Of a stretch of 64,000 bases of DNA, positions 35,363 to 64,000 are shown one piece after another. The DNA lies in assembly GCF_003790525.1 (NCBI RefSeq), contig NZ_CP033635.1; one strand, 5' to 3'. The stretch comes from Escherichia coli (lineage in GTDB: Bacteria > Pseudomonadota > Gammaproteobacteria > Enterobacterales > Enterobacteriaceae). Position numbers and translations under genes: made by a program. Numbering within the stretch: the stretch's first letter is position 1; every line of letters begins with the position of its first letter. The notes beneath the pieces were generated by a model. It ran no database searches. It saw nothing but the letters and a program-made list of their open reading frames with translations, and was not told the origin of the DNA.

Positions 35363-35429
35363 TAGCCTGCGCAGACAAACCCGACTTCACAGCGTAAGAT
35401 AATTGTTCATTTCGCGCTGTGGAGTCGGT

Positions 35430-62433: not shown

Positions 62434-62456
62434 GCGTTTCTGATTCATTGATTAAA

Positions 62457-62489
62457 GGCCAGCCAGTAACACAACTGACTGGCCTTTTT
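62457..62489. terminator. Hairpin plus U-tract between convergent yfeX and yfeW
   Basis: ggccagccagt...actgactggcc imperfect stem followed by TTTTTATT on the plus strand. Confidence 0.55.
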
Positions 62490-62490
62490 A

Positions 62491-63792
62491 TTACTGCTTT
62501 AACGCCGCATACACCTGATCAACTACCCAACCATAAGTTGCAATCGGTAGCTGACCGCTTTCGAACATATTGGGATTTTTTTGTGGATCGGCAACTGGCG
62601 AATGTGGCTTGTTGCTTAACATCACAATCGCCATATGATTCACCGGATCGATAACGGTCACCGTCCCGGTCCAACCTGTGTGACCGTAGGTTTGCGGGCT
62701 TGCCAGCGTGCCAAACGTCGGCGTCATGGTGGCATTACCATTCACGCGCCAGCCAAGGCCAAAAGTGGCATCTTCCTTAGAGCTGGTGGTGAACATCTTC
62801 ACCGTTTCTGCATTGAACAGCTGCACATCACCATAGCCACCGCCGTTCAGCATCGTTTGCATTAACACCGCAATATCGCCGGTATTGGAAAACAAACCTG
62901 CGTGCCCGGAAACACCGCCCATCGAATAAAAGGCTTTTTCATCGTGCACCTGACCCCAGAGAGTGGAGGTGCGGATATTCGGGAAGTGAATCACGCCATC
63001 GCGGGTATTGCCGTTCAGTTCCGTGGCGGCAATTTGCTGTGGTTTAAAGCCTTTCAACAGCGGATTAAACACCGTATGCGTCAGGCCGAGCGGGCGATAA
63101 ATCGACTCTTCAACATAGTGGTCAAGCGGCTGACCGGTGACCGACTCGACGATAAATCCAAGCAGCATATAATCGACATCGCTGTAGATATGCTTGCTGC
63201 CGGGCTGATACTCCAGCGGCGTGCGCTTGATCATCTCCAGCGTCTGGCCTTTATCCTGGGAATATAACGCGCCCGCGACCGCTTTATTCGGGTATTGCGG
63301 ATCTGCCGGGAAACCGCCGCTGTGATGCAGCAGATCAGAAATCCGCAGCGTGTTTTTGCCTTTGATCGCATCGTTCGGGCTGTCGGCAAACCCTGGAATA
63401 TATTTCGCAATCCGATCGTCAGGATGCAGTTTGCCTTCGCTCATCAGCTTTTGCAGCGCGAAGTTAGTGGCGTACATCTTGGTGTTTGAGGCCAGATCAT
63501 ACAGCGTCCCGGTGGTGGCTTTTACAGGCTGCGCCATTAACGCGCTGCCATCGTACTTTTTCGCCGCGCCCCAGGCTTTGCGATAAACAATCTGATTATC
63601 TTTTATAATCAGCAGGTTTACGCCGGGATAACCGGCATCAACTTGCTGGCTTATCCAGCGATCCATCTGATTAAGCCGTTCGACGTTAAACCCTGCCTTC
63701 TCTGGCGAACTTTCTGTCAGAACAGGGTATTTTGCGGCGCTGACGCTACAGCTGACAGCCAGCAGAGAAAGATAGAGCATTGTCCGTTTCAT
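62491..63792 (-). CDS. yfeW: Penicillin-binding protein 4B (class C beta-lactamase-like DD-peptidase)
   Basis: Track ORF 62491-63879; the ATG at 63792 (MKRTMLYLSLLAVSCSVSA signal peptide) gives about 433 aa; SxxK-type motif (LASNTK). Confidence 0.85.
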   Translation of the reverse strand: MKRTMLYLSLLAVSCSVSAAKYPVLTESSPEKAGFNVERLNQMDRWISQQVDAGYPGVNLLIIKDNQIVYRKAWGAAKKYDGSALMAQPVKATTGTLYDLASNTKMYATNFALQKLMSEGKLHPDDRIAKYIPGFADSPNDAIKGKNTLRISDLLHHSGGFPADPQYPNKAVAGALYSQDKGQTLEMIKRTPLEYQPGSKHIYSDVDYMLLGFIVESVTGQPLDHYVEESIYRPLGLTHTVFNPLLKGFKPQQIAATELNGNTRDGVIHFPNIRTSTLWGQVHDEKAFYSMGGVSGHAGLFSNTGDIAVLMQTMLNGGGYGDVQLFNAETVKMFTTSSKEDATFGLGWRVNGNATMTPTFGTLASPQTYGHTGWTGTVTVIDPVNHMAIVMLSNKPHSPVADPQKNPNMFESGQLPIATYGWVVDQVYAALKQ

Positions 63793-63796
63793 ATTA

Positions 63797-64000
63797 TCAG
63801 TCCAGATTGACGTTACGGCAGCCAAAGAGCGTGGTGAAAATAAACCCGCAAACCCATGCCACCAGAATCCCGCCTGCATAAACCGCCATTGCAGGAAGGA
63901 TACCTTGTGCTGAGGTCATCAGCGGCAGCGCCACCAGACCAGACGGCCCAAAGGCGCTGTTTAAGCCCATCGGCAGACCCCACCAGGCTATCAGTCCGAT
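63797..64000 (-). CDS. murP: 3' end of a PTS EIIBC-type membrane protein, probably the N-acetylmuramic-acid transporter (partial)
   Basis: Minus-strand frame reads ...[67 protein letters not shown] then stop at 63797-63799, 4 bp before the yfeW start; identity inferred from the recalled murQ-murP-yfeW order. Confidence 0.55.

Follow-up and report, generated by a model that had tools for sequence, protein, structure and literature searches.

In Escherichia coli, pbp4B (yfeW) belongs to the three-gene murQ operon which, according to the text and Fig. 1 of PMC5061867 (after Jaeger and Mayer 2008), is served by a single promoter ahead of murQ and a single terminator behind yfeW. Deletion of murR raises the murQ, murP and pbp4B mRNAs together (PMC9177960), and yfeW, murR, murP and murQ were grouped by a common RNA-seq pattern (PMC8813938). 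The product, PBP4B, is described as a penicillin-binding DD-carboxypeptidase in Vega and Ayala 2006, as cited in PMC5061867 and PMC4916385. Its contribution to DD-carboxypeptidase activity and pentapeptide trimming has been called “smaller or null”, and its synthesis amounts to ~20-30 molecules per generation (PMC4916385), a low level that fits a repressed catabolic operon.

In Bacillus subtilis, the recycling operon comprises murQ-murR-murP-amiE-nagZ-namZ(ybbC) (Litzinger 2010, as cited; PMC5061867; PMC8054146). AmiE is an exo-MurNAc-L-Ala amidase that frees MurNAc-peptides of their peptide in extracellular muropeptide rescue (PMC5061867, PMC8054146). This PF00144 protein, also known as YbbE, does not hydrolyze intact peptidoglycan (PMC10653849). 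The identities reported between E. coli and B. subtilis are 48% for MurQ, 38% for MurP and 27% for MurR (PMC5061867).

The locus analyzed here lies at the end of the window, that is, the whole stretch of 64,000 nucleotides of E. coli DNA, and has the same three genes as the K-12 operon, in the same order and on the same strand, with a divergent murR and a convergent yfeX downstream. In a K-12-like strain (L003), with ~95% DNA identity, murP and pbp4b are likewise 4 nt apart; the strain differs in the spacer sequence (TATC instead of TAAT), the length of PBP4B (434 aa instead of 433) and the distance between pbp4b and yfeX (~240 nt, L003 3014-3252, compared with 57 nt at window 62434-62490). 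These are strain-level differences only. In B. subtilis, the PBP4B-family gene likewise comes directly after murP, and AmiE shares with PBP4B the NCBIfam equivalog, the SNTK, YSD and HTG motifs and a signal peptide. The two loci differ in that the murP-amiE gap is 55 nt as opposed to 4 nt in E. coli, murR is located inside the B. subtilis operon, and the E. coli locus contains no counterpart of nagZ and namZ, which follow amiE. Amidase activity has been shown for B. subtilis AmiE only (PMC5061867, PMC8054146). The class C low-molecular-weight PBPs and S12 DD-peptidases (AmpH, AmpC, Streptomyces R61) share the PF00144 fold and the SxxK serine nucleophile with PBP4B, but are distant and carry YxN and KTG where PBP4B has YSD and HTG.

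Because the three-gene operon has been published and the effect of murR on all three mRNAs has been measured, the murP-yfeW gap is a gene boundary of the E. coli murQ-murP-yfeW operon that is in the literature already. The operon finding is not new, and its worth is that of a correctly read case of operon inference from gene spacing. The sole lead worth keeping is the PBP4B-AmiE orthology, along with the absence of pbp4b or murR from some strains.

The murP-pbp4b junction

The last 1.6 kb of the window matches several E. coli chromosomes, SMS-3-5 among them, at 100% identity, and only 2 mismatches in 64,000 nt, at window positions 472 and 28497, separate the window from SMS-3-5 (2639217-2703216, reverse complement). 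The window encompasses core genes from hda to murP, with uninterrupted eut and hyf operons; a scan of the whole 64 kb at Rfam gathering scores gave 0 matches.

The upstream open reading frame on the minus strand runs to the window edge at 64000 and, in translation, is closed by TGA at 63799-63797. It contains the last 67 codons and the stop of murP (63797-64000, minus strand), with the rest of the gene located beyond the edge. This hydrophobic fragment, which the first-pass annotation took for the C-terminus of a PTS EIIC-type protein, indeed belongs to such a protein, MurP: the only NCBIfam model it matched is the MurP equivalog NF007152, at the last 67 positions of the model (411-477 of 477, E 1.7e-35). 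Pfam gave no match to the fragment because the piece is too short. In genomes that are 100% identical in this region, RefSeq annotates the gene as murP, which encodes the MurNAc-specific PTS EIIBC protein, the EIIC part being the one within the window. When the locus was extended upstream in a near-identical genome, as had been suggested, the full murP was found, with murQ and the divergent murR upstream of it. The full-length murP of a near-identical genome (L001) scores 942.7 bits against the NF007152 cut-off of 516, so that a frame unrelated to murP, one of the cases that the first-pass annotation had named as refuting its reading, is not what the extension revealed. In the part of the extended locus outside the window, MurQ scores 506.5 bits (cut-off 302) and MurR 636.7 bits (cut-off 408). 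The gene order in SMS-3-5 is ucpA, murR (on the opposite strand), murQ, murP, pbp4b and convergent yfeX, with 3 nt between murQ and murP and 4 nt between murP and pbp4b; thus, both members of the murQ-murP operon, which the first-pass annotation had named, are present upstream of pbp4b.

The downstream gene, pbp4b (yfeW; 62491-63792, minus strand), starts with ATG at 63792-63790 and ends with TAA at 62493-62491, and its 433 codons encode a serine hydrolase of the beta-lactamase/S12 fold with an N-terminal signal peptide. RefSeq names this frame pbp4b in identical genomes; it matches NCBIfam NF002968 over the full length with 890.2 bits (cut-off 385) and PF00144 with 238 bits. The GC content of the gene (0.521) and its GC3 (0.599) are similar to those of its neighbors, and the base composition shows no sign of recent foreign origin. 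Three observations back the start at 63792: the RefSeq annotation in identical genomes, the signal peptide, and the alignment of the start and cleavage region with homologues. An alternative start at 63879, which would yield a 462-aa frame, was rejected: this frame overlaps murP out of frame and finds no support among the homologues.

The spacer between the two genes consists of 4 nt (63793-63796, minus strand) that read TAAT from 63796 to 63793, precisely the gap and the positions reported at first sight. Together with the murP stop, it forms an in-frame tandem stop, TGA-TAA (63793-63799). A tandem in-frame stop, TAA-TAA (62488-62493), also ends pbp4b. The spacer is TATC, also 4 nt, in the K-12-like strain and shrinks to 2 nt in B2 and cryptic-clade strains. 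Across 14 enterobacterial loci from 5 genera (E. coli strains, cryptic Escherichia clades, Salmonella enterica subsp. arizonae, Citrobacter, Pluralibacter and Enterobacter), the distance from the murP stop to the pbp4B start is 2-14 nt, and because the junction recurs with such a gap in all 14 loci, it is more than chance. Same-strand gene pairs spaced this tightly are overwhelmingly operonic in E. coli. The loci with longer gaps have a good Shine-Dalgarno sequence, GAGGGAA or AAGGGAA. In the window, the Shine-Dalgarno duplex of pbp4b reaches only -3.0 kcal/mol, compared with -5.6 for murP and -10.3 for yfeX. This weak site, combined with the start 4 nt after the murP stop, suggests termination-reinitiation coupling, in which translation of pbp4b probably depends on ribosomes that finish murP.

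Transcription signals along the operon

In a simple consensus scan, which recovers near-consensus sites only, no sigma-70-like site was detected on the sense strand between 62300 and 64000 (1.7 kb), and the sole sense-strand promoter-like site of the extended 4.1-kb locus is located upstream of murQ. A simple scan found no terminator-like signal at the murP-pbp4b junction, and the 121 nt around the junction fold worse than shuffled sequences (z +1.71). Inside murQ and murP, the terminator-like matches have 5-bp stems, and there are 6 of them, compared with 5.6 expected from shuffles. These scans are crude: they overlooked the hairpin that follows pbp4b, and the number of matches is that expected from shuffles. 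Given that a real hairpin was missed and that the counts equal the shuffle expectation, the scans are weak negative evidence only. The first-pass annotation had considered an independent promoter and terminator between the two genes; neither was found by the scans or in the fold of the junction. Along with the published operon (PMC5061867, PMC9177960, PMC8813938), the lack of a promoter or terminator signal at the junction in these scans supports the co-transcription of yfeW with murQ and murP that had been proposed from the spacing.

The only strong hairpin found is a perfect 14-bp hairpin after the pbp4b stop (62454-62487, with no strand assigned), at -24.5 kcal/mol and z -4.86, with 0 of 200 shuffles as stable. 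It is located inside the 57-nt convergent spacer between pbp4b and yfeX, and on the yfeX side its T-run is strong, whereas on the pbp4b side it is weak (UUUAAU). This hairpin probably terminates transcription in both directions and would thereby mark the end of the murQ operon. The longer pbp4b-yfeX spacer of K-12-like strains contains an extra block of ~185 bp, and no inverted repeat was found in this spacer in L003. In some strains, IS200C is inserted near the spacer (hits H14 and H40/L071). On the plus strand, antisense to pbp4b, there is a sigma-70-like match at 63146-63173 (TCGACG, 16 nt, TATAAT; 10 of 12 positions), within chance expectation (1 found, 1.5 expected).

The tight spacing could also result from compact packing, with pbp4b transcribed mainly from its own promoter in the 3' part of murP. 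Members of this family can be expressed on their own: in Salmonella enterica subsp. diarizonae (L018 4216-6445), a 74%-identical PBP4B homologue stands by itself between nudK/ypfG and aegA, in divergent orientation to its upstream neighbors, and in Kluyvera georgiana (L014) and one Citrobacter (L015), homologues with 73-74% identity lack murP upstream, none of murP, murQ and murR lying within 5 kb. Because of these loci away from murQP, pbp4b can also be a separate unit, and the limited reach of the promoter scan, namely, near-consensus sigma-70 sites, leaves this explanation some room. However, no sense-strand promoter-like match was found in murP, neither in the 204 nt within the window nor in the whole gene of L001, and in the murR deletion mutant, pbp4B mRNA rises alongside those of murQ and murP (PMC9177960). 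The map in the text and figure of PMC5061867 has one promoter and one terminator, and the gap between murP and pbp4b stays within 2-14 nt. We therefore regard a dedicated promoter in murP as the main source of pbp4b transcripts as very unlikely.

PBP4B and its relationship to AmiE

The N-terminus of PBP4B, MKRTMLYLSLLAVSCSVSA/AKYPVL (the slash marks the cleavage site), read by eye, is a predicted Sec-type signal peptide (residues 1-19; 63736-63792, minus strand), with cleavage at about SVSA/AK, and implies periplasmic export. The A-x-A cleavage site aligns with AFA/V and AFA/T of the Salmonella and Enterobacter homologues. Residues 11-15 (LAVSC) form a loose lipobox; however, Cys15 is absent from the Salmonella, Enterobacter and Bacillus homologues. 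Since this cysteine is not conserved and A-x-A is kept, a lipoprotein is unlikely and the signal-peptidase-I site is preferred.

Three active-site motifs are invariant in an alignment of 7 sequences that includes AmiE: the catalytic S102-N-T-K105 (SxxK; 63478-63489, minus strand), Y203-S-D205, at the YxN position of class C enzymes (63178-63186, minus strand), and H371-T-G373, at the KTG position (62674-62682, minus strand). Of the SxxK, YxN/SxN and KTG triad of penicillin-binding DD-carboxypeptidases, PBP4B thus has the first motif, as SNTK, with YSD and HTG in place of the second and third; the motifs are compatible with an acyl-serine hydrolase and do not specify the substrate. Among solved structures, the best relatives of PBP4B are Flp, esterases, ClbP and R61-type DD-peptidases, the best PDB match having E 4.5e-23 over half of the protein.

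PBP4B and B. subtilis AmiE share 55% identity and 75% positives, with 0 gaps over 402 aa (E 6e-178), an identity that exceeds the figures reported for MurQ, MurP and MurR (PMC5061867), and the PBP4B equivalog NF002968 matches AmiE with 770.2 bits. In the B. subtilis locus compared here (L069), the order is murQ-murR-murP-amiE-nagZ-namZ, with amiE directly after murP. A search for PBP4B relatives in one genome per species yielded 63 loci, many of them from Bacillaceae, with 55-61% identity. In ~25 of the 63, genes of the MurNAc pathway (murQ, murR, murP, nagZ, namZ or mupG, called by similarity to the pathway proteins of E. coli and B. subtilis) adjoin the PBP4B-family gene. Several Bacillaceae loci have the arrangement murQ-murR-murP-(mupG)-pbp4B-like-nagZ-namZ (linkage in L024, L027, L032 and L034), an Anaerococcus locus (L043) has murR-pbp4B...murQ-murP, and an Erysipelotrichaceae locus (L045) has murP-murQ-pbp4B. 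In some Bacillaceae, mupG, encoding a 6-phospho-N-acetylmuramidase (MupG_N, MupG_C), lies between murP and the AmiE-family gene; an example is Metabacillus kandeliae (L024 3569-4594), where murQ-murR-murP-mupG-amiE-like-nagZ-namZ is a seven-gene variant of the B. subtilis operon.

PBP4B is counted among the E. coli DD-carboxypeptidases, yet is 55% identical to a MurNAc-peptide amidase, and its position next to murP is kept across phyla. The gene is pbp4B/yfeW, as the first-pass annotation had it, but the accompanying description as a low-molecular-weight penicillin-binding protein requires qualification, given that the label comes from one older report and the closest characterized homologue is an amidase. 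In the open-access papers found, we encountered no statement of the PBP4B-AmiE orthology, which Litzinger 2010 may already note. The searchable literature yielded no data on MurNAc-L-Ala amidase activity of E. coli PBP4B.

The gene could be co-transcribed with murQ and murP and still encode a true DD-carboxypeptidase of low affinity with a role in sacculus trimming, its operon position being a historical accident with no link to the pathway. PMC4916385 and PMC5061867 list the protein with the class C PBPs and DD-carboxypeptidases of E. coli, citing Vega and Ayala 2006 for this assignment, and it has the S12/beta-lactamase fold with the SxxK motif. Moreover, the loss of pbp4b in ~24% of E. coli genomes, with murQP kept, indicates that murQP works without PBP4B. 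The similarity to AmpH and other DD-peptidases is, however, weak (62.8 bits on the AmpH model, against a cut-off of 266), whereas the closest characterized homologue, with which PBP4B shares 55% identity, acts as an amidase and spares intact peptidoglycan (PMC10653849; PMC8054146). A “smaller or null” part in pentapeptide trimming (PMC4916385) and the linkage of the family to MurNAc-pathway genes, which recurs across phyla, also argue against this reading. We consider the sacculus-trimming role possible but rather unlikely. Orthology and synteny tilt the balance moderately toward PBP4B acting in an AmiE-like manner in the periplasm, supplying MurP with free MurNAc.

Such an AmiE-like PBP4B feeding MurP would account for the presence of all three genes on a single transcript. 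The best explanation of the 4-nt gap is, with high probability, that it represents an internal boundary of the murQ-murP-pbp4B operon, as judged from the sequence and the published statements. Under control by MurR and cAMP-CAP, a single mRNA would run from the promoter upstream of murQ, beyond the window, through murP and pbp4b and most likely end at the 62454-62487 hairpin, with translation of pbp4b presumably coupled to murP termination. PBP4B would be exported via its signal peptide and, in the moderately favored AmiE-like role, would strip the peptide from MurNAc-peptides outside the cytoplasm; MurP would import and phosphorylate the MurNAc so released, and MurQ would convert it by removing the lactyl ether. 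To our knowledge, E. coli has no periplasmic NagZ or NamZ to generate MurNAc-peptides, so the substrates of PBP4B would have to be exogenous MurNAc-peptides.

Strain- and species-level variation

At least 80% of the 1.6-kb stretch is present in 4,149 of the 5,426 complete E. coli genomes, and full-length pbp4b is absent from this locus in ~24% of them (1,276 of 5,426). The five short-coverage variants examined have in common one internal pbp4b deletion of ~1.18 kb, with murQ and murP intact. The deletion spans window positions ~62527-63708, or codons ~29-422 on the minus strand, and leaves a stub of 28 codons. Among the matches listed, six genomes show 26% query coverage, which corresponds to the pbp4b-deleted form. 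The carriers include a B2 O6:K2:H1 strain, E. coli B and an O139:H1 strain (L002, L070 and L071).

The murR region is missing in ~1,049 of the 5,426 complete genomes (~19%), where only 150 of 1,149 nt are matched; the query was the ucpA-murQ interval of L001 (1731-2879), which lies outside the window, compared with L002 600-880. In the O6:K2:H1 strain, which has neither murR nor pbp4b, a bare murQP lies ~280 nt from ucpA, and murR is kept in E. coli B and the O139:H1 strain. Loss of murR may mean that murQP is de-repressed in those lineages.

We lean, by a narrow margin, toward the broader reading that the protein named PBP4B is not primarily a DD-carboxypeptidase but a periplasmic AmiE orthologue, that murQ-murP-pbp4B is a three-step module, and that the pbp4b and murR losses define lineages that scavenge cell-wall sugar differently. 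Should the function of PBP4B be re-assigned, the E. coli PBP inventory and models of how muropeptides are scavenged would need revision, and the absence of pbp4b or murR from some strains would acquire a testable phenotype.

Beyond E. coli, there is no intact pbp4b between murP and yfeX in Escherichia albertii (L067). The genes that flank the solitary homologue of S. enterica subsp. diarizonae, nudK and aegA, are adjacent in the window (spacer 35363-35429), ~27 kb from the E. coli pbp4b site, and the PBP4B family has thus settled at two separate sites within this part of the chromosome.
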